DNA of 46,456 bases from Psammoneis japonica. Taxonomy: Eukaryota. Location: positions 62,001 to 108,456 of the forward strand of contig QPGO01000223.1 of the NCBI GenBank assembly GCA_008632985.1, read 5' to 3'. Under the pieces are notes generated by a model. That model had not been told where the DNA came from and did not search any database. It saw only the letters and a program-made list of their open reading frames with translations. This document shows, piece after piece, positions 10,688 to 42,413 of the stretch. The position numbers and the translations under genes are program-made. The first letter of the stretch is position 1. The number at the start of each line of letters is the position of its first letter.

Positions 10688-12206
10688 TTTCATGAGGGGC
10701 AGTGCAAACGTAGTTTCTTTTCTCCGTCGGAAACTCAGGGAGCGAAAAGCTCCTGTGCGGATGGCGGATCATATTCCTTTAGAGCTTAGCTTTTTCTTTT
10801 TATTTTAGGCAATGAGTTATTTTACCGAGCGATTTTACATTGGTGGATGCACTGGGCAAGTTAAAGCACCGCAATGGTGAGGTTAAGGTAGCTTGAATTT
10901 TGCGGTTTAACTTTTGAAGATTTGAGCAGAGGAACGTTGGCTTACAATATTCTTTTGCTATTTGGGCGCATGCTACTGCGAAGCAATGCATACTAAGTGA
11001 ATCTTCGATCAGTCCACAGCGTCCTCTATCTTCGTAACTTTTACCTTGAAACATTTTAGAAAAAAGGTCGGTTGGCCAAGCATGCGGCTTCTCTCCATAG
11101 TCTTTCGACATTAGACTACTTTTCTTTCTGTTTTGAAGACAGTTGCGGAGAAGGGAGAGCAGTATTAGCTGCAATTTTTCATGATGAACAGTGCAGACAA
11201 AAGGAAAGTCTAAAAGACAAGTAGGGCTAGTAGGCACCCTCCAGAGCTACTCTACTCTCTAGCTAGCTATCGTAGCATAGCGTTTCAAGTTGTTGAGCAC
11301 CATCCAATAGACCCGGAAATTCTTGCAGACATTTTGGGTTCGCGCTTCTTGTAGTCCGCGCGATTTTGCCATCGAGGGTCGGAGCGTCGAGGTCGGAGGG
11401 AGATTTTCAATTTCCAAACTTTTGATTGTATTGCGTGGTCGGTGTGGAGGAGTTTCAAGTAGCATGTGACAGGGCGCCAAACAACAAGGCTGTTCTTCTT
11501 TCCTCGTGTTCAATGAAGCCAACACTCCACCGTTGTTTCCGAGATGACGAAGAACAAGCTTGGGCAATTACAGAGCGTCAACTCGCAAGAGTTGCAAAGC
11601 CTCCAACACTGCGCGGCGACTTCAGCATCGCAGTCATCACCATGCTGCGTCCTTTCATACATCATCACGTCGATGAACAAGTCGACACATGTTGAAACTA
11701 GAGAATTCTGCAGATGTGGTCATTTGAGGCCAGCTGGGGACAGGTGTTTGAGTGGCTCATGCGCTCGGGGTCAGAAAACCAATTGCGCAGTGCAATGTGG
11801 ATAAATTTGATTCCAGTCGGATGATCCACATAGTCTGTCTTGAGTTGGAGGCTGTCGGTCATTGTCGATGACGTTGAGCAAGCTGATCGCCAACTTTGGA
11901 GATCCAAAACGGCACTCGGCGTGGAATGGTTTCGCACTGCACCTGTCACAATCGTACGTTTGTTTCCGTTTGATGTTCTGTCTTGAAAAGAACACTCTCA
12001 CAGCTTTTTTTCTCATTCGCCACAAAAGTTTCCTTTGTGTGCAACAATCTAATGGTTGTCCACAGGTGCCCCGCATCTAAGCGATTGCATGTTTCTCGGT
12101 GCTTCTCGGCAACGCACGTGCAAACGAATGCATGTGGACACATGTCTTGTGCACTTCTGCTGGCCAAGTCTCCGCTGCACCCTGCAGCTAGAACATGATG
12201 TGAAAT

Positions 12207-13433
12207 TTAGACAATGGGACATCCGGGATGCACAGGTGCAGCACTCTCAACAGACTCGGCAGCGGCGCTCGTCTCCTTTCCAACCACCCGAGCTGCGCGG
12301 CAAGCAAATCTTAGAATGAAGGCAAAGAACAGCACGAAGCTTGCGCAAACGGCAACAAGGAGAAAAATCTTCCAGCCGTCCACCTTGTCATTGGGATCTG
12401 GGAGAACAGCGAACTCGTGGCAGTCTTCAATTTCCTCTTTTCCACCAAGCACGTCCTCACCAATGGAACGGACACAAACTTCATGGACGCCTTCAGCAAG
12501 ACCGGCCAGAGAGACGTTAAAGCCGACCGTGATCGCTCCTTCTTGTGGTAGATCGTGGGTGAGATTGGCATTGGCGATCTTGTTGAACGCGCCACCATCA
12601 ACCTGGAGCTTCAGGCTTTTAAGAGCAGTTCCAATGAGATCGTCGATGATGTCAGGGAGAGCATCAGGGTCAGGAACAGAAGTGCATTTTCCTCCGTTTT
12701 GCAAAATGTCAATCATGTTGTTTGGCACCGGCTCACCACACTCATGAGACATGTCGCAGTCCACACTGTCGCCAATGGCAACCGTGTGAACTGTGGCTTT
12801 TGTTTTGCCGAGTTCCTTGGCTGCCTCTCGAATGGTTTCTTCATCTTCGTTGCAAAGCCCGTCCCCCGCAAAGACTGCAATGGTTGTGCCGGCAGTGTTG
12901 GAGGGATCGTGGACCAGTTCTGCCGCCGCTGTCAAGGCGTCAACACAGTTGGCACCGCCAATGGAGCAGCCATCTTCAATCCCCATCTTGATGTCTCGGC
13001 TCGTCGGAGGCTGCAGCGAAGTGCTGACGGTGGCAAAATCATCAAAGTTGATTACACTGGCCAGTTCTGCAGACCCATCTGAAGTTGCTTTATAGTGGAG
13101 TGCTTTGAAGAAAGCTTGAACGCATTCCAGGACAGTTCCGCAGTCACCATCCTCTTCTGTGGTGCTCTCAGACATGTCCATCATGTAAATGTACGAGACA
13201 TCTGCCTCGCCCTTTCCAACGCTCGTGTTGCCGAGGATGTTCACGTCCATGGCGTTTGGCAAGGTGGAGTTGACAGCAGGTGCCGCAATGCTCACGTTGA
13301 GCACAGCCCCATTCTCAAGATCCTTCATTTGTGGATGAAGCTCTCTCGTTTTGGGCTGAAAGGTGCAAAGACCTGCGGTGTCTCTGGCGGAGAGCAGAAG
13401 TGCTGCTAGAATGGTGGCAATGGATGGCTTCAT
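12207..13433 (-). CDS. Signal-peptide + von Willebrand factor A (VWA) domain + single C-terminal TM protein; ORF open but possibly hypermutated
   Basis: Signal MKPSIATILAALLLSA. MIDAS-like DMSES, GGANC..AL, IAVFAGDG and VHTVAIG. TM WKIFLLVAVCASFVLFFAFIL. ATG taken at 13433. Confidence 0.75.
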   Translation of the reverse strand: MKPSIATILAALLLSARDTAGLCTFQPKTRELHPQMKDLENGAVLNVSIAAPAVNSTLPNAMDVNILGNTSVGKGEADVSYIYMMDMSESTTEEDGDCGTVLECVQAFFKALHYKATSDGSAELASVINFDDFATVSTSLQPPTSRDIKMGIEDGCSIGGANCVDALTAAAELVHDPSNTAGTTIAVFAGDGLCNEDEETIREAAKELGKTKATVHTVAIGDSVDCDMSHECGEPVPNNMIDILQNGGKCTSVPDPDALPDIIDDLIGTALKSLKLQVDGGAFNKIANANLTHDLPQEGAITVGFNVSLAGLAEGVHEVCVRSIGEDVLGGKEEIEDCHEFAVLPDPNDKVDGWKIFLLVAVCASFVLFFAFILRFACRAARVVGKETSAAAESVESAAPVHPGCPIV

Positions 13434-13721
13434 GGTCACTCATTTGCCAGATTCGTTTTCTCTGCCATCACAAGAGGGAAAAGGCGGAGTTGAGCGCAAT
13501 GAGAATGTGCAGCGCATTTCAACAACTTGCAGACATTGATCCTTTCTGAAAGCACCAGGAACACAGGGTGGGCATCCTCTCTGTCTTTCTAGTTGGATGT
13601 GAAGTCGCACAATCTGCGAGATGTGTGACACTGCAAACGTGCCTTGTTTGTGATGGCACCCAGAGCAATTGTTGTTCTGCATCTGCGATCTTCTCAGTCA
13701 CGCTCAAAACAGAAAAGATGC
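13368..13721 (+). repeat. Direct repeat copy 1 (VWA gene 5' end plus upstream region), paired with 14761-15122
   Basis: Shared blocks include catcacaagagggaaaaggc, aatgagaatgtgcagc, acttgcagacattga and tctgcatctgcgatctt...gctcaaaacagaaaaga. Confidence 0.9.
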
Positions 13722-14760
13722 TGTCTGGCGCGGCGCCCACCTGCGGTGCGGGCAGTCTGCTCCCACCTGCTTTGGGGGGCCTGCAGCAATTGGTGTGTGT
13801 GGCTCCAGTGTCGGTCATGCATTGGAGTGTGATGCATGACACACTCTCTCCACTTGTAGAGAGCAGAGTGGCAGCAGTGTGTCATGCATCACCATGAAAC
13901 AATTGTGTGACAGCATGATGTTGATCCGCAATCTCATTTGTTCAGTCATGGTTGAGGTTGGCGCGCGCGCGCGGATGTGCAGCGTTGAGTCCATGCGTCG
14001 ACGCACCACGTGCACTTGGGACTGTCAATGCACCAGCAAACACCAGCAGGGTCGCACGGCACCGGTGCCGTACGACGCAGGCCGTGTGTTCCAGTGATGA
14101 GGGCAATTTTGCATCAGCAGCTTTTTTGATGTCCGTAATTTTGGTTGCAAGCAACTCATTTGAGAAGAAAGCAGTGGCGGCTGCTCAGAGGCTGGATGAT
14201 GTTCTTGCTGCTGTGCATCTCGGAACCCAGCTTTCATCCCGAGTCGGTGTGTTGTGGATGCGTTCCAGCTCCACTCTAGGTGGGACCTCGCACTGCTGCA
14301 CTGTGCGACATCAATGGTTTTTTGGATCGCGTCGCATGTCGCGCATGCACATTTCTGCGTGTCACATTCTACGAAATTGTTTCATGCTCCCTGTTTTGCG
14401 AAGCCAAAGGCTTTCTATTTTCAACGTTTGTGAGAATAAAAATGCGCTGGGCACATTCTTTAATGTCTGAAGAATGCACCCGGGCAAACTGTCAATGATG
14501 CACTGCAAGTGTGAAGGAGGAGATGCATTCGCAAAATTGCCTCTTTTTCTGTTGGCGATCATTTGTCTTTCCATTGCAGCATGAATTTACTACGGAGCTC
14601 GCACGTAGAATTCTGCCGCCAAAGGTGAATTTGCTGTGTTGCTCATCTTTCATCTCTCACTTCAATGAAGGGCTGGATCAAAAAGCAAAATCAGCAGCAG
14701 CACTTGTTTTTGTTGATCTTGCAAAGCTCAGCTTCCTCATTGCTCTTTCTTTGCTGCACC

Positions 14761-15122
14761 AAGACCTGTGGTGTCTCTGGCGCAGATCAGAGGTGCTTCT
14801 AGAATGGTGTGGCAATGGATGGCTTCACATGGTTGTTTGTTTGCCTGATTTGTTTTCTTTGTCATCACAAGAGGGAAAAGGCAGAGGAGAGCACAATGAG
14901 AATGTGCAGCACATTTCAATGACTTGCAGACATTGACCCTTTCTGCAAACACCACCCAGGGGCACAGGGCAGGTGCCCTCTGTCTTTCTCATTCGATGTG
15001 AAGTCTCACAATCTGCAAGACATGCGACACCACAAACATGCCTTGTTTGTTGTGGTGTTTGGAACAATTGTTGCTCTGCATCTGCGATCTTTTCAATCAT
15101 GCTCAAAACAGAAAAGAGATGC
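14761..15122 (-). pseudogene. Decayed duplicate of the VWA gene 5' end and promoter (repeat copy 2)
   Basis: Aligns to 13368-13721 with many CpG transitions, CA/TG swaps and small indels. Confidence 0.85.
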
Positions 15123-15171
15123 CGCTCGGTGAGGCGCTCCTGGCTTGGGGGGTCCACTCTCAGCAAAAACA

Positions 15172-15778
15172 TTGAAAATGCTCAAAAGAGTGGCTCAAGA
15201 TCATTTTGACCGCATGTTTTAAACAACAAACCATCTTGCCAATCAAGAGGCACACACAACACAACAACTCTCAAGTGCAAAGAGCTGCTCAGCAGCATGC
15301 TTGGGAGTGCAAAACATGTTTCTCACAAGCCAAGAGGGCACAGCAGTTCTGTGAAGGGGGTGCCAATGACTGAGGATCTGTTTTTTTTTACAATTTTTAG
15401 CTCCAGCAACTCAAGCTCACAAAATGTGTGGTGGCACAGTTGTGCCCTCATTGCACTTGTTCTCAACAAGAACAAAGATTTGCAGTTTGAAGCTCTGCTG
15501 GCAACTCACAAGCCTGATGGCGGATCGCACAAACCCAAACCACTCTCAGCGAAGATGGTGAAAATGCTCAAAAGAGCAGGGCTCAAGATCATTTTGATTC
15601 CCGCCAGACATTTGACAACAAGCCAGCTTGCCAATCAAGAGGTGCACACAAAGCACCTGTTGAGAGTGTGAAGAGCTGCCTTGTTGGCATGCTTGGGAGT
15701 GCAAAACATGTGCCTCAATCCATGAGGAGGGAACAGCAGATCCATGAAGGTGGGCGCCAATGACTGAGGATCTGTTTT
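15172..15778 (+). repeat. Two diverged direct repeats of ~215 bp (15172-15385 and 15559-15778)
   Basis: Shared tgaaaatgctcaaaagag, gctcaagatcattttga, cttgccaatcaagagg, gcatgcttgggagtgcaaaacatg and gccaatgactgaggatctgtttt. Confidence 0.85.
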
Positions 15779-16822
15779 GCTCCCTGCATTCCTCAACAAC
15801 AGACACTCACATGCTTTTCCTCTTCCACATGGCAAGCATGTTCCAAAGTTGTGTTGCAACAAAAGAGCTGTGTTTCCCCCCTCAACTCAAGTGGAGAGGG
15901 TTCGACTAAAATGGAAAAACTGCCAGCAGACGGGTTCCAGTCCTAGGTGGGACTTTTTGTGACATTTGCCCCGTAGAATTCTACGTGCGAGCTCTGTAGT
16001 TCGTACTCTGGTTAATGCATATATTTATCTTCGAAAACGGCCAAGTTTGTAGTACATCTATTCCTGTTCGTACTCGAAGTTTTGGATAATACGCCTGCCC
16101 TACGCCATTCTTAAGACACTCGAGAATGGCGTAGAAGAAAAAAATATTAAAAGTTGTTCAATGGATAGCCTGATAAATGTACTATAAAATCATACAAAAT
16201 TTCGCCAAAATCACGTAGAAATGTACGTGCGCGACATACGACGCGATTCAAAAAACTATCGATGTCACAGTTCAGTAGTACGAGGTCCCACCTACTAGAC
16301 CTGGAACGCGTCAGCAGGGATCGATCATGAAATGAAAGCTGATAACTTCAAGGGGAAGCATGGCACAAGTCACATCGCAACGCAACGTTTTGGTTTACAT
16401 GGATTGGATCAGAATCGGAATGAACTTAATCATGGACATATATTTTTCTAATCTTATATCATTATTCAGGTTTGTATGTATGATTTTTGACTGATCTTTC
16501 GAAAGAGGCAAAAAAATGTGGTGTGCAACTTGAAACTGCCGTCGCTGCCAACATGCGCTTGATACCATGTGAACACAATGAGTTTGGAACGGTATGATAG
16601 ACAGCACCTCCCGCCACATGGCGTCTGGATCTAGTTTTTGTGTTGAGTCTCTCATTTGCCGTTGTTTTCAGAAAAGATGTTTCAATCGTGTCAAAATATG
16701 GAGTCCCGACAAATCCTGGTCGCGGGACTTACGGGTTATGCACCTCCATTCACATTATTTCACACATCCAAAAAAGTTGCGTTAGTTGTACTCTGTGTGA
16801 AAATCTCAAACCAGAACACACC

Positions 16823-23976: not shown

Positions 23977-26308
23977 GGGTGCGAGCAATGCCGAGTTTGC
24001 CGCTGCAAGAGTGGATCCAAGAGCCTTCATGGCTCAAAGAAAAGTAGATTTCAGAATGCAGCACATGACATGAACGACACAAACACTTTGGCCGCGTGTC
24101 GCGTGAGTCAAGGAACAATAAAGAAGCTTCATAGATCGCAGCTGTAGCTCAGAGGTTGTAATAGAATTGTTGCTGTTGACAAAAGTATCGTTAGAGAAAT
24201 TATGGCTACATAGAAACTGGGGATCGACCAACAATCATTTCTTGGAGGAAAGATGGACTTGATGACCATGCCTTTGACACAGTGACTCTCCCTTTCAAAC
24301 GGAAGAGCCACCAGCCAGACAGAGTTGCATGTTGCCTAAAAGAAGCAGGGATTTTTCTGAAGACTTTCCAGCAGCACAGAAATCACTGCCAGGTGAAGCA
24401 ACGTCACAAGCCAATGGAAGAAGCCCAATGTTGCAATGTTGCACAGCAATGAAAACACTGAGGGGCTCTTTGGCCATTTTAGCTGTGTTTCTTTTTGCAG
24501 CCACAAGCCAGCAATGTGCTTGACAATGTCGCAAAATGGCATGTGCTGTTTTGGACAAAACAGAGTGCTGTTTTCATCAAATTCATTCCTCACATTTCGC
24601 TGCATTGCTGTTATGCACACCCTCATTGTTGCTGTTGCACAGTGAGCAAAACATCTCAGAGCCATGTGGTGCTTCCAGCTGCCTCAGCACCAACTCAGCA
24701 CACCATGTCATCCAACATCTCTGTGAGGTGTGCAAGCACATTTTGTTGCAGCCAAAAGTGGCCAACAACTCAGTGCAAAACTGCCAAGGCAGGTTTCTCT
24801 TTGTTGTGCCACACAAAGTGGCTTCCACCTCAGTCTTTCCATGGCCTTGGATTAGCAAGGAGCTGGCTCCATCTCACAAGAGCTCCTCTCAGTTGTTCAA
24901 AGTCCTCAATTCTCAGCAAAAGAGACAGAGGTCAGCAATGGATTCTCACAAACCACTTTGGAATGAGCAACTTTGACATGGTGCTGCCAACGACCTCTGC
25001 AAACTGCAAAGTTGTGTGGGCAATGGTTTCAAGTGAGAGAAGCATCCTCCATGTTGAAAACAGAACAAAAGTTTTTGACAAAGGTCAGCTCTGTGCAAAC
25101 AAAACATGAACATCTTGCTCTTGCAAATGCCCCAACTTTTAATTTGCTTTTGCAAAAGCTCAGACCCCATGGCAGCAAAGTGGTGGTTGCTTTTTCAGAA
25201 CCTTCTCTGCTGCCTTTGGCACAAGACACAAGAAATGTGGCCAGTGTGGCCAGCTCATGGGAGGTGGTTTCTTGGACTCTCTTTCCAGCTACATTGTCTG
25301 GCCCTGTGGGCACCCTTTGAGCTCTCACTTCTTGAACCTTTCCAGCTTGACACATGAACAAAAAACCTTGGCAAACAAGAAGCCATTGTGGCTGGGCAAC
25401 AACTTGCTCCACAATTGCAACAATGAGAAAGCAGCTGCTGCCAAGAAGAGAAAGAGCACTTTCAATCAGTTGCAGGAAAATGTCAAGCACTGCCCACCCC
25501 TCATCTTGCATCTGCTGTTGCTGCCAGTTTGTTGCATGCCTGTTGCACTTTTTCCTCTCTGCCTCACTCTCAATCACAATGCTTGCAATTTTTGGGTGGC
25601 AGTTTTTCTCATTCAGAGCACAGGCTCAAATGGAGAGCAACAGGAGAAAATGTTGAGGCATTTGCCAGCCACCCAGAGCTTTTGACATGGCCAGCATGTG
25701 CACACACACACATGCACACATTAGATTTTGCTTGAAAGCAGCAGTGCACATGGCTGAACAGCAATTGCCTTTGCTTGAAAACAGCACGCCAGCCACTCCA
25801 ACATGGCTTGGGGCAAACCAAAGTGCAGCGCTCACAGAGTTGACAAGTTGGCATGGTGATGTGTCTGTTTCATGGACGTGAAAGATGAGAGCATGGTGTC
25901 AAGAGTTGAGTTCACAACAAAATTTTTAGCAAACCCAAATGCTTGCATTTTTAACATTTCATGGCTGCCATGTGGAGATGCCAGTTGTCATTTTTTGAAT
26001 CATTGACAAATTCTGTCTGCTCATCTGTCCTCTGTGAATTGATGCACTCATCATTCTGGGGGACGTCTTTGGCTGGAAGTGCAAGACTGTTGAAAAACGT
26101 TACACAGAATTTGTGCTGAAATTGTCTGTCAATCAGTGTGATTGGGGCATTTGGGAATGCTGGACAGATCATGTGCAGGGTTTTCCAATTGCAAAATTCT
26201 GCACAACAAACAGTTTGCAAAACAAGGAAGATGGTTTAAAAGCAACCGTCAGCCCATTGTCACTGTTGTCTGTGCTGTGTTGTGCCTCAAGCTTCCACGT
26301 GTGACAGG

Positions 26309-27640
26309 GGGGTCAAAACCAACTGTTTGCCTCTGCAAAAAATGCTGGGGGTCACAAATGTGTCGACTCAATCTGTTGAAAGTGGACATTGAAATGCAAA
26401 AGTGTGGATTTGGTGTGCTGCCACTGCAAGAGGAACAGCCCCCCAGTGCTTGAGCACGACACTTTGTTGGTTGCAGATGTTGCAAGACTGCTCTGCTTGC
26501 AACTCACATGTGGGCACCACAGTGGAACACATGCAGAGCTTGAGCCCCTGCATGACTGTGGTCACATTTGGCACTTTGTGCACCCTGCACAGACCCTTCA
26601 TGTGTGCAGTGTGTGACACTTGCATGGTGGCCAGCAGTTGCGCCATGACTCATTGCTGCATGGAACTCCTGCAGCCCATTGCAGGTCTTGCACCAGGAGT
26701 CACTTGTTTGACGTTTGTCAGTGCAGCACACTTTTTTGCATGATCAGCATTGCTGAAGACAGCCTGCAGATGCAGGAAAGCATTCTCACTGACAAGCCCA
26801 GGTTTGTGCACAGCAGTTGCTCCCATGTCAAGGTCAGTCAAGTGACAAGCACAACCCAGCACCCTGCTTCTTGTGGTGCACACAAAGAATGCCATTGTCA
26901 TTGAACTTGAAGCACCGTGCATGTCCTGAGTCTTTTGTCCTTTTGCCCAGGTCCTGATGAGCTGATGAGCATTGTCATCACGTGTGTCTTTGTTTCAATG
27001 TGATCGCAGAGTTTGTTTTCTCACACAACACTCTTTTTATCTTGCCAGGAGCTCCATTTCTCAGTGCAACATGCCTCTGCACTTAGCACAGAACTCCTGC
27101 AGCCTGTTGCAGGTCTTGCAACAGGAGAGTCATGTTTCTCAGCATGATGCACTTCTGCATGATCAGCATCACTGTGGACAGCCTGCAGATGCAGGAAAGA
27201 AGCAGCCCAGCTGCCAAGTCCAGGGTTGTGTGCTGCACAACACCCAAGGGGGCGCTGTCCTGCCAACAAGAAAACAAGGCTTCAATTCTCCCAAGGACTC
27301 TGTGATGCTTCAGCAACATCTTTTAGAAATGGGTCATTGACCAAAGGGTTCGACAACAATGTTCTTTGCAAGCACTGCTCAGTTGTTCAGAGCTTGTTGC
27401 CTTGGCTTGGCTTGACCACCCCCACCCCTTGGCAACCTCCTGCCAAGAACAAACAACCCACCAGACCTCTGAAGAGTTCTTGTGGCTGTCAAGAGGCAAC
27501 AATGTGACCTGCAGAATTGACACAGACTGACATTGTCAACTCAATCATGTCCTTTGTTTTTTCAGCTGCTGTGACCACAGATTGTCCTTGGTGCAGACTG
27601 CAACACATGCAACAACACTCTGACAACAACAATCTTGGCA
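26309..27640 (+). pseudogene. Decayed 3' fragment of the methyltransferase gene (copy A), split by an ~860-bp insertion (~26395-27255)
   Basis: tgcaaaaaatgctggg...tctgttgaaagtggacattgaa (26334-26393) and tctcccaaggactctgtgatgcttcagcaacatcttttagaaatggg...tttgcaagcactgctcag...gtggctgtcaagaggcaacaatgtgacc (27261-27640) align with 29691-30160. Confidence 0.85.
26664..27198 (+). repeat. Two diverged direct repeats of ~110 bp (26664-26780 and 27092-27198) within the insertion
   Basis: Shared aactcctgcagcc..ttgcaggtcttgca, tgcatgatcagcat and gacagcctgcagatgcaggaaag. Confidence 0.85.
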
Positions 27641-29029
27641 GCTGCATGTTGTGGAGCTGAAAAGACACACAAGTGTGGTGTGCTGACAGCAAGCAACACT
27701 TGGCACTCTGTGGTTGCTGTCAACAACAACAAAGAGAAAGCCCTTCAACAGCAAAAAAAACACAACAGCCAACCCAGCATTGTCCCTGTGGACAATGTCA
27801 CAGCATGTTCTGTTGGTTTCTCTCTTTGCCACAACTGCTGGCTGCTCTTGAGAAGAGACAACACACTCTTCTGTCCTGCACCACCCTGCAATGCCAACAC
27901 CAGTGCTGAGAGCCAATCCATTGGATCCTCAAACAAGAAGACAAAAGAATGTGGTGCAACACAGCATGCCCTGCCAGCACACACATCCCTCCAAAGCAAC
28001 CCTCGTTTTGTTCTTGGGAAGCCATCAAAAGTGTCCCTTTTCAATTTTCTCATCATCATGCAGAGCAGCAGCAAGCACAAAGCACTGCACAACAAAGCAG
28101 CTTCAGAAAATGATGTCAAGCCAGTTCTCACTCAGTGGCTCAATGCATGAAATCAGCGCCAAGACTCTGCAGCACTGATGGACCATGGTGTGGTTTGGGA
28201 GGACATGTGTGGAAAAATTCACATCCCCCAGTGGGACAGTGGGAATGACAGACTGCAAAGCAGAGCAAAAGCAAGTCACACAGGTGGGTTTTCAAGGGGA
28301 AAGTGGCATGTTGGGTGTGAAGTTTTGCAGCGCACCAAAGAAGTTGGTTTGCAAGGGACTTTTGGTGACGGCAATGCCAAGGCTCTGGAGGCCCCATTTT
28401 TGTGCGTGCAGGGTTGGTGGTGCGACGACAGGTGAGGCCAAAATGGGCCAAAGTTGTGTTGGTCCAGGTGGCTGAAGCAGCAGGAAAAATGCCTGCAGGA
28501 GAAAGCTGAGCATCAGCAAAGGTGGCACACACTGAAGACTCAGACGATGTCCAAGGCGGGACGAGGCACTGGGAGTGGGCACTCTTGATTGGCGGTGGTG
28601 CTGAAAAGGAGACGGCAAGCAAAACACCCATGTGCTCCATCCAAGATGATCAACGGTGAACGGGGTGAGATGGATGTCGGCTTGAAGAAACAACTGTTGT
28701 GCCGTGTTGCGCGTCTCGTGAGTTTGTGCCAAAGGCGGGCAAGAAATAACACATCGGCGCCGACAGGTGGTGGTGTGTGCTCAGTCAGTGCTGTGACCTC
28801 GTTTTCCGTTGCCACTTACAGTAACGGCATCGCCAAAAATCTGGAAAAATTTCATATCATCACGAAGATAAATCATTGTAAAAACCGTTATCTTTTGAAA
28901 AAACAAGGGATTTTCAAATCAAGAGAGAGTTGATCTGCGTCTGTGATCTGCGAAAAACCAACGAAGTCGTGATTGTACCAGTATCATAATAAAAAGAAGA
29001 ATTCGTATCGAAACCTGAAACAGCACATC

Positions 29030-30022
29030 ATGCGATCGCGTCAACATTCGCTGCTTGCCAGATCATTGATGCTGTTATGCGTGGCTGCGGCAATCGCAAC
29101 TCTGACAAATTTGACAAGTCGCGTCGATGTCTTTGTAATGCGCAAGAATCATGATGAGAAACGCTTTTCCATTGACGAAATCCCCTCAGAAGAACGTCAT
29201 TCTCTTTGCACCCAGAATCCGTACGCTCCCTCGATGAACAAGTCACTTGTAGACATTGCCCGTGGAGCTCATGATTGGCTCGAGTTGCTTCCCAGGCACC
29301 TCAACCGAGCTAATTCTACCAGCATGTCACAGCATACTCACAAACGATTCTTTCCATTTGAGCCCCTAGCTACCTGTGAGCAATCCTGCATTGGTGGACC
29401 GTGCGGAGACGATAAGAGTAAAATCATGTGTGGCATCGAAAGGTTGCGGGAAGGATGCATTGTATACTCGATTGGGGGCAACAATCAATGGCAGTTTGAA
29501 AATGACTTGCTGAAGAGAACGCCTTGTGAAATTCATACCTTTGACTGTACGGGCAATATCAAGAGATTTAAGAAACCCGACAATAGTCGCTTGAAGTTTC
29601 ACCACATTTGTCTTGCTGATACATCCGTGCCTGCCCCCCAAAATTGTAGTGGGACTAAAGTTTGCGGCGAGATGATGACTATTGAGGGTATGCAGAATAT
29701 GCTGGGTCATGAACGCATCGATCTACTGAAAATGGACATTGAAGGCTTTGAATGGCCCATCTTTGAGTCGTGGCGTACGATTTTAAATGACACGAGGAAG
29801 GATCTTGTGCTGCCATTTCAGATTCTTGTGGAGGTTCACTACAGGACACAATTCAAGGAACTGTTTCACGCCAACAAACAAGACTTCAAGTCTCCCAAGG
29901 ACATTGTGATGCTTCAACAACATCTTTTACAAATGGGCTACGTGACTGCAGTACGGGATGACAATATCTTTTGCAAGCACTGCTCAGAGCTTACTTTGGT
30001 TCGGTTTCAATGTTCCAACTAG
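29030..30022 (+). CDS. SAM-dependent methyltransferase, Methyltransf_22 / METTL24-like, with N-terminal signal anchor
   Basis: CIVYSIGGNNQWQFE, CEIHTFD, IDLLKMDIEGFEW and QILVEVH motifs. N-terminal hydrophobic LMLLCVAAAIATL. Normal TA/CG content. Confidence 0.88.
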   Translation: MRSRQHSLLARSLMLLCVAAAIATLTNLTSRVDVFVMRKNHDEKRFSIDEIPSEERHSLCTQNPYAPSMNKSLVDIARGAHDWLELLPRHLNRANSTSMSQHTHKRFFPFEPLATCEQSCIGGPCGDDKSKIMCGIERLREGCIVYSIGGNNQWQFENDLLKRTPCEIHTFDCTGNIKRFKKPDNSRLKFHHICLADTSVPAPQNCSGTKVCGEMMTIEGMQNMLGHERIDLLKMDIEGFEWPIFESWRTILNDTRKDLVLPFQILVEVHYRTQFKELFHANKQDFKSPKDIVMLQQHLLQMGYVTAVRDDNIFCKHCSELTLVRFQCSN

Positions 30023-31403
30023 AACCTGTCAAAAATGAAGAATCCAGATCTGACGAGTTGCGGCTGTCGATACGCAACAGTGTGACCGGCAAAAGTAAAC
30101 TAGACTACCAATCTTAACTTACGACTAAGACATCTCTATTCTGACAACACATTCTTCTATAGCACATAATCTTACAAGGTTTACTACACTGGTTAGCCGC
30201 AGCATCAACGAGAGTACAAGCTATGGCACGACGGCTTCGCGTCATGGTTGCTGTCGTGGGAGAGGCCACTTGCAGGGCCGCCGATATATCCTTTGGGGAG
30301 ACTGTTTTGGACCCGAGCATTTTCTTTAATGAAACAATCCCGACTTTTTGAGAGAGTGCTGGACGAGTTTCAACTACGTGTGGGCCACAAAGTTGGGGGG
30401 CTCATCTGTTGCACCTTTGACATTCCCCATGATGACACTGCAGCCCAGCCTGCCTTAGATTTAGAAAAAAAGCACAGAGTGGTGAAGTGCTGTAAAAAAA
30501 TGGGTGATGCAACCAAAATCTCAGACAATGATCAAACATTTTGTCACAACACAAATGCACTCAAAGGTTGTTTGGGCATGCCAATCTTCTTGTTGAATGC
30601 AGACAAAGCTCTCAGGATGTTTTCAGAGCCACTGTTGTGGCAGCACAGCTGGGGCAAATGTTGGTGGATTGGACCCCAACAGCAGCCTTGCTTTCTTGAT
30701 CAACCAACCAAACTGGCCCACACATCTGTGTGAGTGAGGACCAAATGCGCAACTCCCCTGCCAGCCACTGTGTCTGTCTTTGGTGAGTGAGGAGGTGCTG
30801 CACAATCTGATGATGCAAATGCCAACACATGGCGCCAGTTGGAGATGGTCTGTGGTGGGTCAGAACATGTCCAACTGGGATGCAGGTCTCAGCACTTGCT
30901 CTGTGCTCTTCTTGCTTTCTTGTGGATCAGAGGACAAGCTCTGGGCAATTGAAACAATCAGATGGCTCACTCACCTGAAAATTTCTCACTCACCTCTTGA
31001 TGTGTTGCCAGCACTCACTTGAAACTGGCAACACCCCCCCCCCAGCATTTTGTGGTGCTGCTGCTGCATTGACAAGCAAAGAAACAAAAACCAAAACAGG
31101 CAAGTCAGTGCACACATTCAAGAGACTTCTCCCCCCTGAGCTTTTTTGCTCCACAGGTGCTTGGTTGATCAGATCCTCACTTTGATGAGATTCATCTGAT
31201 CCGTTGTCAGAGACCAAGACAAAGGAGAGTGCAATTTTTCTTCAGGAACAAATGACAAGTGGCAATGGCAGCTGCAGCCAAGAACCCATCTTGCACTTGG
31301 TCGTGCCATCATTGTCAACAAAAAATTGAAAAATTCAATGAATGAAACAAGAAACCCATGACCAGTTGTTTGCAAGGGAGAAAAGTGATTTGACCAACAA
31401 AAT

Positions 31404-31757
31404 GTCCAACAACAACACAGGAAAAATGTGCCACCAAAATGCACAGATGGAGCACTTGGGGAGCACAACAACCAGCGCCTGCATCATTGACATTAGACCT
31501 TCAACCTTGGAGTCAACCCTTGGCAGTTGTGACATGCAAAGCAATGGAGGGCAACAGGGGGATGGTTGAAGGGAGAACAGCAAGTCCAACAATGACACAG
31601 GAACAATTTGCCAACAAGAAGCACAGAAGGAGCACTTGGCAAGAAGCACAACAACCAGCACCTGCATCATTGACATTGACTGGACCTTCAACCTTCAAGT
31701 CAACCCCCCAGGCAGCTGCAATGTGCAAAGCAATGGAGTGCAACAGGGGACAGTTGA
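31404..31757 (+). repeat. Tandem duplication of an ~180-bp unit (31404-31568, 31584-31757)
   Basis: Shared gtccaacaa..acacaggaa, ggagcacttgg, agcacaacaaccagc.cctgcatcattgacatt, gaccttcaacctt and tgcaaagcaatggag.gcaacagggg. Confidence 0.9.
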
Positions 31758-34700
31758 TTTTTGGCTGACAACCAAGAGAAGAGAATTGGCACTTCACCAG
31801 CAAATGTCAATGGTGCTTTGGCTGGTGGAGGGTTTGCAGCCCAGTCAAGAGCAAGGGCTGGTTGGTCCATCCTGGCCTTGTGCTTTTGTTGGGCGGTGCA
31901 TTTGCATGGGAGCTCTTCTTTCAGTCCAGTCAGCCTCCTGTCATTTTTGGCAAGAGAGTTCCTCATCTTCCAACATTTCAAAAGGGGACATTGTGCATTT
32001 TTGCCTTTTGTTGGCTGTTTGAGGACCAGCAACATCAGGTGCAGAAGAAAGCTTGAAACATTTGTCAACAGACTTTTGCAGCTTCTGTGCATCAATGAGC
32101 ATTTTCAATCTCAAGGCTTTGTCTGCACCCAGAATTTCTCTGTCATTGCTCTCACAACCAACCAGTGCCACCACAGATTTGTGGCCAGATTCTGATGATT
32201 TGCGTGCAACAATCTGTCTGCACACATGCTCAGTTTGTCAAAACCCACACACAGTTGGGTTGCATCTCTGGCAAGCAATCACACTGAAAACTGCCTCTTT
32301 GTGAGGACATTGAAAGAGGGCAAAGCTGACCAGCACATGTCCCATCTGCAGCTCAAAAGGAGTGCTGCAGAGAAAGCATAGACTGATGTTGGACTGATTG
32401 CCTGGTGGGACCTTGGTGAAGACATCAGACATTTCCATTCTCAATTGGTTCCTGTCCAACCTTCAACCAGCAACTGGCAGCCATCCCTCTGGTGATGGTT
32501 GTTGTTTGAGCACCACAACAGATTGCTCAGATGATTGTCAGGACAAATGGATGCCAGCCAGCCTCCTCCACCCCATCACCAAGATTTTGATGCTCACATG
32601 CAAACAATTGCAGGTGTTGATTGATGAAATTTTTCTCATTGTTGTTTGCATGTATGTTCTGTCAATTGCTTTGCCGAGATCAGTCTGTGTGCTTGCCTGT
32701 CCATTTCAAGTGTTCATCTGCAATGTGACAAGAAGAGGACAACAACTTCAGGGCCATCAAGTCTAGGAGCAATCATCAAATTTGTCGTCAACTTCTTCTG
32801 ACCCACACTGTTGTTTGTCCTCTTCAGTGGGATGAACAAGACAATTCGGCCAAGTTTGGCAGTCACTCCATTCTAGCTTGCTGCTTTCTGCGACTGGAGG
32901 AGGACTTGAAATCACAGAGCCACATTTCTCGTCTGACTTTGCTTCATGGTTTCTGAGCAGATAAAAGCAGACAAAGGCTTGAGACTTGCAAAGACAGTCT
33001 GTGGAAACTTCAACAATTTGGGATGGGCCGGCCCAAGAATTCTGCATTGGCCGGTGCACGTGGCCATCACACTTCCATCACAATGGCAGGCAAGGAGAGG
33101 ACCATGGCATGAAGTGGCACATCACGTTCTCCCATTGCTGTGGAGCACTTTTACACACTGTCATCTTCCTCAGATTCTTCACCCTCATCGTCACTGTCAA
33201 GGCCAAAAAAAAGGGAAAAATCCTCAGTGACATGCAATCATTGTTCATCAATGCATCATCAACTCAAGGTTTTTGAGCTTGGGTCCTCATGCGTGTGCAT
33301 CACTCCCAGCTTGGGAGGTCTGCAATTGGTGCAGGAAGAAGAGAAAGAGAAAGACCTCCCATGGATCATTGCATTTTTTAGTGCTGAGCCAATCTGGCCA
33401 GCACCAGCCTCTGCACATTTTTCTTGCAGATGCCATGGCGCTGTTGCGTCATTTGCACCATCGTCGTCACGTCTTTTCATGGGGTGAGTCATGCATGAGA
33501 TTTGTCTTGATTGTCCACATCATGTGGGGGTGTGCGCATTGGCCCAGCCTCAACAAGTGCCGTGTGTGTTGCAAAACATGTTGTTGACTGAAGTGGTGTG
33601 ATTTTTTGTTGTTGTTGTCATTGTCCAATTGTGTTTCTTTCATTTTACCTTCTTTTTTGGTTTGTGCTCCAATGCACAGCATTTGCTTTCACACCAGCAT
33701 GAGCATGGGCACAATGTGTGACAGAGCACAAGGTGATTTGTCAACCTTGCAACCTGCGTTTGTGGTCATCACATTGTCTGATGGCATGCTCATCCTTTGT
33801 TTTTCAACTGGTTGTTCCTTTGACTTGTTTTGCTCTTGTGGCATCTGTGCTTGCCCTTTCTTGTTTTGCCTTGTCTTTTGACATGTCAACAGTGCTTGAC
33901 AGAAAAATGAAATTGAAGCCTCTCAAGTTAACACAAGGCTTCTCTTTGTTGACTCTGCATGTGGAGGCCTGGGAACAATGCTCACCAACATGAGCTCTGA
34001 GACTCAGGCTCATTCTGGATTTGTGGATGAGGCACCCCTTGATGTTCTTTGCCTTGTTCCTGCCAAAGGTTTCAACAGTGTGTGCATCCATTCCAAGGGA
34101 TTCCAGACTGACTTGGTCATTCCCTGTGGGGTGTTTCTGTGCTGAGTTCTTTAAAGACAGCACATGATTGCCTTTCTTCCTTTTTGGTGTGGAGCTGGTT
34201 GTTGCCAGACAAGTGCATGCTTTGTGAGAAATTTCACTTCCAATTGTGTCTGCTTTCAGCAAGTGCCTTTTTTGGAAGAAATGCCAAGAAGCATCTGATT
34301 GGCACTTGGGTGATCCATTCTTGTTGGTTCTTCAAGAATTCTCCATTGCCTGTCTGTCTTGTCTGCTTCACTTTGGATTCCCAGCCTTTTGAAAACAATT
34401 GCCTTGGAGCCTTGGGTGATTGCATGATCACAGAATCTTGTCATTTCAACAAGGACAGCAAATTGTGCCTGCTCTGAGCAGCAGCCTGTTCTGTTGCAAT
34501 GCTCAATGAAGACAGAAAGGTGGGGATCTGCATGCAGCCAATTTGATGGCCGCTGCTTCTGCAAAGTCAGCTTGGCTTTAACACCTGAAGATTCTCTCCC
34601 TCAGCAGTTGCACTTTGCTCCTTGATTTGTTGCTTTCATGCAAACCCCGGTCATCAACAATTTGTTGCATCTTCTGCATGATCTGCAGCGCCATTTTTCC

Positions 34701-35145
34701 AAATTGTTGGTGCACTTCAATGTGATCTTGAGCAAGGCAATGGGGCCCTAGAAAGAATGAAAGAGACCTTCTTCATCACGCCTGTTGATTGACGGTTGCT
34801 CTCCAAATGGAGATGAACCCATGTTGCATGGAAGTTGACCAAATCCTGTTCAGCACAACAGACAACAATGCAACTGGTGCCATGGTGAGCATCAGTGGGG
34901 CACAATGTCGTCATGAGGTGGAGGGTGCTTCGTGCAAGCACCAAGGCTGCATGGAATTCTACATGGAATGCAGAAATTGTGCAGAAAAATTCACTGACCA
35001 GACTGAAAGTGCAATGCTCTGTTGAAGGCGAAATGCCACAATCACGGGTGAAACATTAAAAAGGTTTCACATTGACGAACATTCATTTAAATGAAAACAT
35101 GCATCTGATTCTTGCTGCCGCTTCTGCTGATTTTATCACCAACTG

Positions 35146-35590
35146 TGCTCACATTTGCTCAGATTGCTGACACTTGCTCACATTTGCTCAAACATGCTCA
35201 TTTGGATTGCCAACCACTTTTGTGGGGAAACGCAATGATCTTGGGTTCTCCTCCTTGACACGATGATGCCAAACAAAGAAGAAAAAGAGAACAGAAATGG
35301 GAGCACAAGAAACAAATGATGCACAATGACCGAATGACTGATGAGTGCAGCAGCAAAATGCCACAGCTTTTTGTGCAGCGTGGGATGATCAACTCCCTGT
35401 GGTTGATCACTTTTGGGATCATGTGCCAAAAACAGACATGCTCAAATGTGCAGCAACATCAAAAAAGTTGGGCCTTTTGTTGTTGTGTCTTGTGTGCTAT
35501 GTTGTTTTGTCAGAAAACAAAGATCATGCAAAGATCTCACATTGCTCACATTTGCTCATGTTTGCTCACATTTGCTCATGTTTGTTCATT
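35146..35590 (+). repeat. 10-bp minisatellite TTGCTCA(CA/TG)T in two clusters (~35146-35200 and ~35535-35590)
   Basis: ttgctcacat ttgctcatgt ttgctcacat ttgctcatgt ttgttcattt read directly. Confidence 0.85.
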
Positions 35591-36676
35591 TCAATCACCA
35601 ACTGTTGGTCATGAAAACAAGCAGGGTTGGTGATTGAAACAATGAGTTTGGTTGGCAAGTTGTTTTTCACATGTTGTGCACAAATGAACAATGGCAACAA
35701 TGTTGTCAACAAACAACTCTCACACATGTCTTGAGGTGTCTTGCACAGACTCAACTTTGCTCACACAGACTTTTCGTGCAGAGCTGCACAAGACTCACAC
35801 CAGAGCATGTGCAGAAAAGATGCAAAATCACAGCACTGATACATGATTTGTTCAAGATTCCATCTCTGACAGTTGTGTGAGTCCCACAGAAATTCTGGAT
35901 CAAACTCCTCTGTGCACAGGACTCAATCATGCAATGTAACTTGGAGGAGCTGGGTGACAATGACACATCTCTTTGCAAGACCCAACAAACTGGCTGTTCA
36001 CATGCAGAGAAAGATCATTGAGAGCAGACATTGATTGCGATGGTCAAACTGCACCTCATGCTGTCGTGCACACAGATGTCATGGTTTGTGATCTGATGCC
36101 TCCCAATTTGCAGTTGGAGGAAATCTGATGACACAGTTGTGTGAGATGCAGTTTGACCCCCAAACCTTCTTCCTTTGTGGGGTCCATTGTGAACATTGCA
36201 TTTTGCAGTGACAGGAACAGCTTCATGGGGTGCATTGACTTGAAAGGCAACAGGAGGTGGCAAAGTCCTCATCCATTGCAGCCCTTGAACTCCATGCAGC
36301 ACTTGAGCTTTTCAAGAGACATTTGCAGCAAAACAAGAGGAGATGGAATCTTTGCCACTGCTCATGAACACATGTCTTGGAAAATTCTGACCTTCCACCA
36401 TTGCTGTCAATCAACCACTCTCCTCTGTCATTCTTTTTGGGAGACCCAGATGAGGGGAAGGATGAGGAGCATTTGTTGCTCCACCCGAGGTTGGTCACCA
36501 TCCATCTCAGCAGCTGTGCAGCAGGCAGCATGTTTGTGATTTCTTTTGGTGACAAAGACAGACAGAGGGGGTTGTGGGAGGGTCACATTCTCTGCTTTGT
36601 TTTCATTTGAGTGCTGCCGTTGGTCCATCATCTCACTGTCATCTGTCCCTGGTCTGGGGTCTGGCATCAAGGGGAA

Positions 36677-37118
36677 GGGGTCAAAATGAGCTGTTTGTCA
36701 CTGCAGAAAATGCTGGGTCATGAACCAACTGATCTGTTGTGAATGGACATTGAACATTTTGAATGGTCCAGCTTTGAGTCGTGGCATGCAATTTTCAATG
36801 ATGTGAGTGCGGATCTCTCATGCTGCCGCTTCTTCGATGGCGAGCTCTGGGGTGTGCTGTGAGACTCGGGGAACTGTTTGACACTGACAAAAAAGACTTC
36901 AAGTCTCTCAAGAGCATGGCGGTGCTTTGACAATGTCTTTTTAGAAATGAAATGGGTTGTGGCTGTGCCTGCCGTGTGAGATGACAGTGTCTTGTGCAAG
37001 CACTGCTCAGAGCCAGAGAGCCTGCTTTGGCTTGGCTTCAATGTGTTCTCCAACCACCAGCCATCAAGACACAACAGTGTGACCCACAAAATTAAAAAAA
37101 AGAGTAAAGATCTTAACT
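36677..37118 (+). pseudogene. Decayed 3' fragment of the methyltransferase gene plus 3' flank (copy B)
   Basis: tgcagaaaatgctgggtcatgaac...aatggacattgaa...ctttgagtcgtggc...ggaactgttt...agacttcaagtctc...tgcaagcactgctcagagc...caacagtgtgacc...tcttaact aligns with 29691-30119. Confidence 0.9.
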
Positions 37119-37384
37119 GACTTCCTTTTTATTCACAGTTAAAGATTGTCCAGGTTCTTGCCTGCTTTGCCCAAAACTTGTCAACAGCACGCGCTTCGTG
37201 CGCGTGCGCTGCTGTCGGCGGCAAGTTTGACGCGATCCCCAAAAGGCGACGTGTCTCATTTTGCAATTTTGTCTCATTTTTTTCTCAGATCTTTCCTCAT
37301 AACAGCTTTCGATCTGTTCTTTGGAGTTATTTGCCATCTGGCAACCTTCGACGACGCACATGAACTCTCATTACTTGCTCAAAA

Positions 37385-39191: not shown

Positions 39192-40466
39192 TTATAGCTT
39201 TACCCTCGCAAGAAAAGGATTGTACCAAGATCCCAAGTAGACATAGTCTCCCCACGATTCCCTTCGGACAACCAAGGCGCCACTTTGGAATCATCTTGGT
39301 AAATTTCAATCAAATTTCCAACTTCATCGTAGACCGCCAGAGCCGACATTTTGGGGATTGCATTGACAAACAATTTGTAGGGAACCATTGCCACTAGAAC
39401 GTTTTGAGCCATGGTTTGTCCGACACCAGATGGAGCAATGAGAACGGTTTGGAATACTTACTGCCCAGTCCAAGCCAATAGCATTTACGTTTTTCTCCGG
39501 ATGGTAAATGCTCCATGGCATCAATGTTGTCACCGGTACCCGGCAAGATGGAAACCAAATCGTCAATCATCTTTTGCTGAGCAATGGAGAACTGTTGCAC
39601 CCGCACTCCAGCGACCATAATGATGTTTTGACGATTGTGACTCAGTGTCAATCCATTGGGCATGTACAAATTCTCCTGAACAACATTTACACCCTTTTCT
39701 TTGGTGTATCGCAACAATCGTCCCGTTTGTCGTCCATCCAATGCCGCATAAAAGATGCGTCGTCGTGGAAAGGTTTGACTGGTTTCGAAATATAAATCGA
39801 GCCATCGGGAGCCTGTACCAACGCATTCAATAATTGGAACCGGTATTCCTTGGGATCCGTATTGGCTCGTTTAGCCAGTGTCACGACATTCACGGATCGG
39901 TTACTTTCCTCATAGATTCCGGTAATCATGAGCAATCCCTGGGAAGCGTCGGCCACCACCAAAACGTCTTCTTCTGTAGCGCCATTCTTGCTGAATTTGG
40001 GATCGACGGACGATCGTTTGACAATCTTCATGCCCAAAGGACGACCGCATGTGGATTCTGTGTCATCTACATCGGCCGGCGAAAAGCCACAATGTTCTCC
40101 TGGACCTGTTCTGGTGAGAAAGGTCCAGCTTACATCTCCGCTAGAGGCATTGGATTGCTCCTCAAGACGAGCAATGCGTCCATCGCCTAGAGACAAGAAC
40201 AGAAAATTACCACCACAAAGGATGCTCTCGGGTCCAACCAGTTGTCCGTTTCCAATGATTTCCACCTTGTTTGTCATGTTTATGATTTTGGTTGGAACGT
40301 CGGGCAATGCGGGAAGAGGATTGGATACAGGAAACACACCTGTGGATCGGAGACGATATTCCACCAATACGGCAACCAAGACAGTCACAGCAATCAAACT
40401 TTTAAAGCGAGCATGTTTTGTTGAGAGTGCTTTTGTTTTTGTTGCAAAGTTGTTGATGTTGCTCAT
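39192..40466 (-). CDS. Strictosidine-synthase-like / APMAP-hemomucin beta-propeller protein, copy 1 (three apparent -1 frameshifts at ~39787, ~39398, ~39258)
   Basis: N-terminal TM, then GPESI, CGRPLGM, VADA, GRLLRY, LYMPNGL, LPGTGDNI and YLGSW, distributed over four reading-frame segments. Each junction is repaired by one extra base in a homopolymer. Confidence 0.85.
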
Positions 40467-41134: not shown

Positions 41135-41190
41135 CGACACACACACACACACACACACACACAACAACGACAACAACAACAACAACAAGA
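41135..41190 (+). repeat. (AC)n / (AAC)n microsatellite upstream of SSL copy 2
   Basis: acacacacacacacacacacacacacaacaacgacaacaacaacaacaacaag read directly. Confidence 0.8.
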
Positions 41191-41202
41191 CGCGTTTTCA
41201 AC

Positions 41203-42413
41203 ATGCCTCGCTTTGTTACAAGTTTCGTGGCTGCGACGACTGTTTGTTGTTGTTCTCCACAGTAGCAGAATGTCGTGTCGGACGATCCCTGGATCCTCTT
41301 CCAGAATTACCCGAATCCCCAGATCTCTCCAAAATCAATAGCATCATGGGCAAGGTGGAAATTGTTGGCAAGGGCAAATTGGTTGGACCCGAGGGTCTTG
41401 TGGTTGGACAAGAATATCTGTTTGCGTCTCTTGGAGATGGACGTATTGCTCGTTTAGAGGAAGATAGTGACGAGGATTTGAGGTGGACCTATCTGACCCG
41501 AACAGGTTCCGGAACGAATTGTCGCTTTTCACCGGGTGATGTCGATAAAACAGAAGAACGATGTGGTCGTCCCTTGGGAATGTTGATTGCCAAACGATCC
41601 ACGGTGGATCCCGATTTCAGTGAAGACGAAGACGAAGAAGACGTTTTGGTGGTTGCCGATGCCTACAAAGGATTGCTCATGGTTACCGGTATTATGATGA
41701 TGCCGATGACGTGAGTGTCGTTACCTTGGCGACACGAGCGTTTCGGATCCCACAGACCACCGCTTTACGTTGCCGAATGGGGTGGTACAAGCTCCGGATG
41801 GATCGATTTACATGACGGAAACCACTCAAACCTATCAAAGACGTCGTATCTTTCATGCGTTTCTGGATGGAAAGCAAGATGGACGATTGTTACAGTATAC
41901 CAAAGAAAATGGTGTAAAGGTTGTCCAGAGAATCTGTACATGCCCAATGGATTGACACTGAGTCATAATGGTGAAAACATCATTATGGTAGCAGGCTTGG
42001 AAGTGATGCAGTACTCCATTGCACAGAAAAAGATGATTAGCGATTTGATTTCGCCATTGCCGGGTACCGGCGATAACATTGATGCCAGAGACCATTTGCC
42101 TTCTGGAGAAAAACGTAACTGCTATTGGATTGGGCTGGGAAGCAGATATTCCAAACCATTCTCCTTGCTTGAGTTTGTATCCGACAAACCGGTTCTCAAA
42201 TCGTTTGTAAAGGCAATCATTCCCTACGAGAAGCTTGTCGAATTCATCCCCAAAACGTCCACTCTGGCGGTGTACGATGACACTGGAGATTTGATTGAAA
42301 TTTATCGAGACGAATCCAATGTGGCGCCGTGGTTGTCCGAAGGCAAATCGTGGGGAGATTACGTTTACTTGGGGTCTTGGTACAATCGGTTTCTAGCCAG
42401 AGTCAAAGTCTAA
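41203..42413 (+). CDS. Strictosidine-synthase-like / APMAP-hemomucin protein, copy 2 (four apparent -1 frameshifts at ~41243, ~41692, ~41743, ~41927)
   Basis: Signal MPRFVTSFVAATTVLLLFSTVA after repair. GPEGL, CGRPLGM, VADAYKGL, PNGV, GRLLQY, LYMPNGL, LPGTGDNI and YLGSWYN. Closely similar to copy 1. Confidence 0.85.

Follow-up and report, generated by a model that had tools for sequence, protein, structure and literature searches.

Two dead copies of a methyltransferase gene in the diatom Psammoneis japonica almost certainly record a local duplication and a domain-wide mutation of TpA to TpG or CpA. The process is real, strong, and unusual, and is seen here through a weak local view. As far as sequence goes, its signature matches the hypermutation described in a single preprint on the chlorarachniophyte Bigelowiella natans and extends that observation to a second SAR lineage; new here are the genome scale, the coupling to CpG decay, the sequence preference, and the protected leaders. 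Our window—the whole stretch of DNA analyzed, to which coordinates refer unless another locus is named—spans 46,456 nucleotides of contig QPGO01000223.1, and the wider surveys draw on the genome it comes from (G000).

The intact gene (29030–30022, plus strand) encodes a 330-amino acid Methyltransf_22/FkbM-like protein (PF13383, E = 2.5e-22), and intact paralogs are found on contig C176. Its product, as a Pfam Methyltransf_22 protein, is not a DNA methyltransferase, and the gene is a bystander. It forms an unconverted island (TA observed/expected [o/e] 0.46, CG 0.84), with one converted domain on either side. Copies A and B, both on the gene's strand and both derived from its 3′ part, also lie one on either side. 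Copy B (36702–37121, plus strand), which includes 3′ flank, is 77% identical to the intact gene across aligned bases, and its protein match is interrupted by frameshifts and three TGA stops. Copy A consists of a 5′ part (26235–26393, plus strand) and a 3′ part (27272–27541, plus strand; 75% identity), split by a repeat-derived insertion (26394–27271) that has matches on C153, C346, and C65 and contains an internal duplication (26639–26815/27065–27237). Next to copy A, a repeat of about 115 bases (26050–26170) has more than 200 candidate copies in G000, some of them in unconverted DNA.

Do the two copies share a history? They agree against the gene in 17 of 258 three-way columns, carry an 8-base insertion at the same place, and have in common about 95 upstream bases that cannot be aligned to the gene (36606–36701, plus strand, in B; 26235–26331 in A; 65% identity over 161 columns, gene part included). 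The shared columns, insertion, and upstream segment indicate that A and B come from one dead copy, which bears out the view of the initial annotation that they have a common ancestry and that the intact gene is only a proxy for their ancestor.

The direction of mutation had been read from six site pairs between the gene and copy B, and all six are present in our alignment (gene positions 29724, 29774–29779, 29952–29955, 29965, 29992, and 30068–30074). That most TA sites were converted holds only in part: 12 of 15 aligned TA steps are lost in B, and only 7 of the 15 became TG or CA (3 kept, 6 TG, 1 CA, 5 other). At 12 aligned CG steps, B has 1 CG, 5 CA, 4 TG, and 2 CC; the 3′ part of copy A keeps 1 of 12 TA steps (5 TG, 3 CA) and none of 8 CG steps. 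Over the 442 bases of 36677–37118 there are 4 TA steps, 3 of them at the domain edge, vs. 31.8 expected from base composition, and 8 CG vs. 23.4. A higher rate at TpA than in other contexts, as had been proposed, is found in copy A (A>G per base 10/26 after T, 18/133 after other bases; P = 0.005) and is not significant in B (7/29 and 24/171; P = 0.17); four of these changes are common to both copies, which makes the two tests dependent on each other. G>A is raised at CpG in both B (9/24 vs. 17/134 elsewhere; P = 0.006) and A (5/19 vs. 9/98; P = 0.05). Two intact paralogs have no A>G excess after T (3/18 and 3/20) and keep 2/11 and 2/8 of the gene's TA steps. An intact paralog with TG at the converted sites, which the initial annotation had taken as evidence against itself, exists for two of the six TA>TG sites of B, and at the Tyr codon of the EVHY stretch, B has TG where the three intact genes all have TA. 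We rejected the intact gene as a stand-in for the ancestor of B (too diverged; P = 0.17), and this locus, judged on its own alignment, is too diverged to do more than hint at a direction.

Both copies lie in extensive domains, with edges taken from a change-point fit. The domain with copy A (24216–28745) has 14 TA vs. 287 expected and 32 CG vs. 251 expected within 24300–28600; the domain with copy B (30496–37090) has 25 TA vs. 484 expected and 54 CG vs. 358 expected within 30400–37100. CG is thereby reduced to 13–15% in both. A younger domain (11500–15750) has lost its TA and largely kept its CG. It holds a frame of 410 open codons (12210–13439, minus strand) with three Tyr, without a Pfam match, and with TA o/e 0.15 and CG o/e 0.73, which is gene-like sequence in early conversion. 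It also contains one arm of an inverted duplication (14228–14626) whose partner (15962–16341) lies in unconverted DNA: the converted arm has 8 TA vs. 33 in the partner, and TA in the partner lies opposite CA seven times and TG six times, the reverse occurring once. An inverted pair of paralogous genes farther along the window (39192–40461 and 41162–42413; 73% identical) is unconverted in both members.

Families with many copies establish the direction that the initial annotation had proposed, TA and CG both giving TG or CA: it is borne out by a DNA-transposon family, by Tyr codons conserved in outgroups, and by pairs of long terminal repeats (LTRs). An old, nonautonomous DNA transposon with short terminal inverted repeats lies within the domain of copy B (33301–35030), and other copies of it have target duplications of 8–9 bases. 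Among 13 aligned copies, 40 sites have TA, TG, and CA in different copies, never CG. In nine young copies (a near-duplicate and three diverged ones being left out), A>G affects 255 of 734 bases after T vs. 84 of 5,358 after A, C, or G, CpG loss 181 of 1,278 (0.142 vs. 0.008–0.014), and the reverse change, TG>TA, 12 of 1,506. The Copia family yielded 1,254 candidates, of which 111 were scored and 30 taken; as best matches to a converted query, these are biased toward converted copies. A>G, in counts that include inherited changes, occurs at 1,326 of 4,522 bases after T vs. 154 of 34,262 elsewhere, with only 9 transversions in the 4,522 TA. No transition is rarer than TG>TA (19/11,822), and TG>CG is the lowest A>G class (0.003). 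CG>TG/CA runs at 0.039 vs. 0.002–0.005, no loss of cytosine in a TC context is seen in the Copia substitution counts, and 60 further sites have TA, TG, and CA without CG.

Tyrosine codons give the same direction from outside the genome. Comparison with 120 outside homologs gives 14 columns in which Tyr is conserved. One of them has Phe in every copy, and the other 13 were scored: 108 of 394 cells still have Tyr, and of the 286 changes, 285 are to Cys or His. Other conserved Copia residues are mostly 92–100% kept, apart from Ile and Thr (67–68%), whose losses are mainly family-wide substitutions. The YxDD Tyr is retained in 27 of 31 cells.

LTR pairs are free of the caveat of inherited change that attaches to the Copia counts. 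Of 22 elements tried, 21 had both LTRs, and 17 of these had matching 5-base target duplications; the other four were dropped. Over 4,702 columns, the 17 pairs oppose TA to TG or CA 106 times, TG to CA 30 times, and CG to TG or CA 18 times, and differ otherwise 14 times (in 3,330 other columns). Counted by site and copy, 162 of 426 TA and 19 of 696 CG became TG or CA. The per-base hazard is 0.24 at TA vs. 0.0021 elsewhere, so that TA changes at least 110-fold faster per base than the other LTR-pair differences—a relative rate, not one per generation—and TA is lost about 17 times faster than CpG.

Is the process still running? In 19 blocks (124 kb) of allele-like contig pairs, 31% of TA-bearing sites differ inside domains and 10% within 500 bases of them, vs. 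1.4% and 0.3% of controls, and the differences in domains imply that the process is recent or current. Farther away, 2.6–3.3% of TA-bearing sites differ vs. 0.1–0.6% of controls, an excess that counts against the account proposed below. The pairs share TG or CA at 10,700 sites and oppose TG to CA at 50. Collinear contig pairs of 96–99.8% identity in G000 (C223/C3, C315/C2, and C317/C41) resemble uncollapsed alleles.

What does the process recognize? TA loss occurs on both strands as A:T>G:C transitions almost only at TpA. It requires a 5′ T, favors RTAY, and spares TTAA and A-tracts; in fits to three datasets, the order of preference for the base that follows the A is T > C > G or A, and the T strand shows the preference ATA > GTA > CTA > TTA. 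In 156.5 kb of converted tiles, surviving TA is mostly TTAA (0.50 of genic density) and CTAA/TTAG (0.26), with ATAT at 0.004 and ATAC/GTAT at 0.007. A TadA-like preference for TACG was rejected, because TACG (0.44) is not singled out from TACC (0.50), TACT (0.44), and TACA (0.29). Neighboring sites change independently (same outcome 0.50–0.51 vs. 0.52–0.53 shuffled), and strand-processive mutation was discarded, there being no runs at four distance cutoffs. No double conversion to CG was observed, which fits a first change that removes the target. A hairpin score has a weak effect on TA hazard (rho 0.13, P = 0.014), and the unpaired probability of the target A has none (rho 0.007).

TA is lost before CG: among 428 one-kilobase tiles, which were picked around transposons and give no genome-wide estimate, 38 are TA-free and CG-normal and none is CG-poor and TA-normal. 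CG loss climbs with local TA loss, from 10/449 to 29–32/449. Two further relationships between the losses were dropped, a dependence of TA hazard on how far away the nearest CG lies (rho 0.03) and a TA edge that outreaches the CG edge (so at 12 of 22 edges, by a median of 25 bases and without a clear rule).

Why are some sequences converted and others spared? The tiles are binary, in that transposon domains are converted and genes spared, host-gene copies inside domains being converted as well. Within single elements, the 3′ LTR is converted more heavily than the 5′ LTR of the same sequence (82 vs. 24, P = 1e-8), and the one strong exception adjoins unconverted DNA. In 9 of 20 Copia copies, a TA-rich 5′ leader lost less than 20% of its TA while the body lost 61%; leader CG loss is 1/189 in these 9 protected copies vs. 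8/230 in the other 11 (P = 0.045). A 1.8-kb gene duplicate of 93% identity is unconverted, with 62 TA shared and 9 TA differences, although such spared duplicates are possibly held by selection. Broken DNA methyltransferase (DNMT) copies on C10 (L097, L103, and L106; 61–81% protein identity to an intact gene) keep their TA and Tyr and are pseudogenes outside converted domains. Low-copy A and B are converted and duplicates outside domains are spared; duplication alone appears to be no trigger of TA loss. The spared gene duplicates, some pseudogenes outside domains, and the unconverted leaders of many Copia copies point to chromatin state—silenced, probably CG-methylated DNA—as the likely target, rather than sequence duplication. 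Partly converted elements seem to have continued transposing, as suggested by some sites at which the two LTRs carry concordant products, and by retention of the YxDD Tyr.

Some further observations concern repeats and methyltransferases in G000. There are 27 DNMT matches, one of them behind a chromodomain-like exon. Cytosine-methyltransferase copies in TA-erased DNA (L092, L093, L094, L098, and L101, on C301, C297, and C28) have long, Tyr-poor frames and may ride on a mobile element. A 371-base tandem repeat (L127:586–1702, on C315) is TA-free in three copies that are 99% identical, which implies amplification after conversion.

In the account that we propose, the gene was almost certainly duplicated locally, and one copy truncated, frameshifted, and then duplicated again, giving A and B. 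Both reside in transposon-rich domains under DNA-level conversion of TpA to TpG or CpA, acting on either strand, at one site each time, after insertion, and recently or still. Ordinary deamination of 5-methylcytosine in the same domains would explain the CG loss. As a result, TA steps disappear and Tyr codons turn into Cys or His without any new stop, and elements die with their frames open over long stretches. An enzyme of the TadA/ADAT fold, recruited to silenced chromatin, might convert adenine to hypoxanthine, which replication would fix as G.

Sequence cannot tell attack on A from attack on the paired T, and we give adenine deamination roughly an even chance of being the chemistry. It is favored by the pure transitions, the strict 5′ T, the weak hairpin effect, an ADAT2 with the expected motifs, and the hypoxanthine glycosylase PF02245, which was not found in G000 (the control matched in 4 of 14 genomes). 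A 5′ T before the target A is also present in tRNA-editing substrates, at U33–A34, and TadA base editors perform A-to-I conversion on DNA that is read as G. Eukaryotic ADAT2 commonly shares an Asn, which is therefore no marker of organisms in which the process runs. The G000 ADAT2, a housekeeping enzyme, has the HAE and PCxxC motifs and this Asn, which the B. natans preprint stresses. Counting against adenine deamination, endonuclease V is present in G000, the target A shows no effect of unpaired probability, and neither the sequence preferences of the one ADAT2 assayed on DNA (see below) nor cytosine loss in a TC context is observed. No deaminase with a chromatin-reader domain appeared among the matches to PF00383 (9), PF14437 (5), and PF02137 (4), whose exons look ordinary. 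A TadA/guanine-deaminase-like domain fused to DIOX_N and a 2OG-Fe(II) oxygenase (L082:313–1785, on C79) is perhaps nucleobase salvage, and two adenosine-deaminase (ADAT1/ADAR-like) genes are present (L276 and L277/L278, on C40 and C79) where one ADAT1 is expected.

Could the pattern arise without any TA-specific mutator, the gene having gained TA by a RIP-like process, or selection, RNA editing, or assembly error being at work? At the locus, B has no significant TA excess, and intact paralogs also differ from the gene at TA. Elsewhere the sites with three states and no CG (40 and 60), the replacement of universal reverse-transcriptase (RT) Tyr, and LTRs that were identical at insertion and now differ, in both directions, speak against it, and the LTRs also exclude RNA editing. 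Against it, too, are the rarity of TG>TA and the products shared by allele-like pairs, and contigs from a sequencing run—perhaps the source data—hold 99% of sampled words of 28500–31500. We therefore rejected RIP-like direction, RNA-level editing, and assembly error on the three-state sites, allele pairs, Tyr codons, and LTR pairs; the LTR pairs refute an origin without a mutator unless they are assembly chimeras, and we regard it as scarcely credible. Biased mismatch repair, in which a Vsr- or MBD4-like activity removes the T of T:G in TpA and so fixes T>C errors, has an analogy in the loss of CTAG in Escherichia coli. It would give pure transitions, dinucleotide specificity, and recruitment to methylated DNA, but its rate is capped by misinsertion, and TA loss outpaces CpG loss; its best expected substrate, TG>CG, is moreover the lowest A>G class. 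It is highly improbable.

If the T is attacked instead, an oxidase recruited to methylated DNA would turn the T of R-T-A into a G-pairing uracil derivative, which we consider unlikely. Thymine oxidation by AlkB enzymes on DNA would be a precedent, for which our literature search gave no confirmation. The candidate is an AlkB–SRA fusion at four loci in G000, two of them intact-looking and spliced (L287:2107–4019 on C116 and L288:561–2475 on C225; AlkB with HxD...H and RxxxxxR plus SRA) and two apparently broken (C149 and C207). Loss of TA and CG in the same domains fits such an oxidase, the T-strand preference resembles the purine-first preference of CG loss, and SRA is described as binding 5mC DNA, but the same text predicts that AlkB–SRA fusions are m6A demethylases (PMC4738411). 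The fusion is also widespread in diatoms (names from Nitzschia, Cylindrotheca, Seminavis, Epithemia, and Fragilaria), and yet Tyr is retained by two named Cylindrotheca Copia proteins, and TA by 77 of 80 Copia loci from metagenomes. The named hits include no Bigelowiella homolog; of 150 representatives, 20 were looked up, and most had no name. Searches of G000 for TET/JBP and for MT-A70 had no match and carry no weight, since their controls matched nowhere. Shared domains would also fit error-prone repair, in which a Pol eta-like polymerase mends 5mC-deamination mismatches and places G opposite T at TA. Five Y-family genes are present in G000, two of them Pol eta-like by exon reading (L282 and L284, on C18 and C19), beside Rev1, iota-like, and kappa-like polymerases. 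Pol eta is described as mutating A to C or G at WA motifs after mismatch repair (PMC4686820); here A>G at TA is alike, but AA is not raised in Copia (49/9,366 vs. 34/11,850 for CA and 71/13,046 for GA) or in the DNA transposon (0.017 vs. 0.015 and 0.014), A>C is absent at TA (the transversions noted above), and there are neither strand-coordinated runs nor a link to CG distance. We hold this reading to be distinctly unlikely.

How does the process relate to known systems? In B. natans, TpA hypermutation strikes integrated NCLDV and virophage DNA: of the 231 mutations in two viral regions, 230 are A:T>G:C changes at TpA. The rate is about 6e-7 per site and generation, and ADAT2 is proposed as the enzyme, as a candidate only (10.64898/2026.01.13.699255). 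The B. natans process is further characterized by activity in only some cell lines, transcriptionally silent targets, and independence of copy number. To go by the preprint's main text, the two cases share TpA-to-TpG/CpA transitions on both strands, confinement to regions, enrichment in transposon domains, and a very high rate. Ours concerns a stramenopile and differs in that TA is almost wholly erased from many kilobases of transposons and host-gene copies. The preprint's main text mentions neither diatoms, CpG, nor LTRs; coupling to CpG decay, the RTAY preference, TTAA resistance, and protected 5′ leaders go beyond it. Fungal RIP is likewise a one-dinucleotide transition hypermutation that wrecks repeats and gene copies, but as described it makes TpA from CpA/TpG, the opposite direction, and acts on pairs above 400 bases and 80% identity (PMC2621366). 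Dependence on RID/DNMT4 and premeiotic timing are further hallmarks of RIP. Here a gene duplicate of 1.8 kb and 93% identity is spared, with selection as a caveat, and the process resembles RIP in effect while failing both tests run, direction and duplication trigger. Amphioxus ADAT2/3 performs A-to-I conversion on DNA that is read as G, with a hairpin preference, as proposed here; BjADAT2—on the accessible text, the sole natural ADAT2 assayed on DNA—has a preference for GAA and also deaminates C at TCG (PMC10354150). Both preferences are absent here. The CpG decay that follows DNMT5-type methylation in diatom transposons, as outlined in 10.1101/2021.06.11.447926, accounts for the CG-to-TG/CA half of the pattern and cannot give the TA loss, which is faster here.

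An ancient SAR genome defense common to diatoms and chlorarachniophytes is possible, if somewhat doubtful: a natural base editor, guided by silenced chromatin, that would permanently recode transposons at TpA. Mutation is almost everywhere AT-biased, and to our knowledge the known repeat mutators (RIP, APOBEC, and CpG decay) all target cytosine. Such a defense would be the mirror image of RIP and the first case of a eukaryotic nuclear genome with an endogenous A:T-to-G:C editor directed by chromatin, one that the promoters of still-competent elements escape while the elements transpose partly recoded. A natural enzyme of such specificity would interest the base-editing field. The process is now testable, with thousands of dated substrates, a sequence preference against which to hold candidate enzymes, and a leader boundary to compare with methylomes. 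LTR ages, dN/dS values, and gene calls are distorted in converted DNA, because dead elements retain long open frames merely without Tyr.

How widely does the process occur? Our literature search, which covered few subscription journals, found no report of TA-erasing hypermutation in a diatom. The named relatives of the Copia and AlkB–SRA proteins of G000 are diatom proteins, and the two named Cylindrotheca Copia proteins retain Tyr. Among the 120 outside RT homologs, 5 have at least two Tyr columns changed to Cys or His, 9 have one, and 106 have none; the homolog poorest in Tyr has no coding sequence in G000 (best match 67%). A metagenome search with this homolog—a query chosen for Tyr poverty, which shows a second organism and separability rather than frequency—returned 80 Copia loci, 3 of which, from one family, have TA o/e 0.01–0.10 and the other 77 TA o/e 0.52–0.98. 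Three of these 77 (L178, L179, and L180) have CG o/e 0.05–0.18 with normal TA and are cases of CpG decay without TA loss in other organisms.
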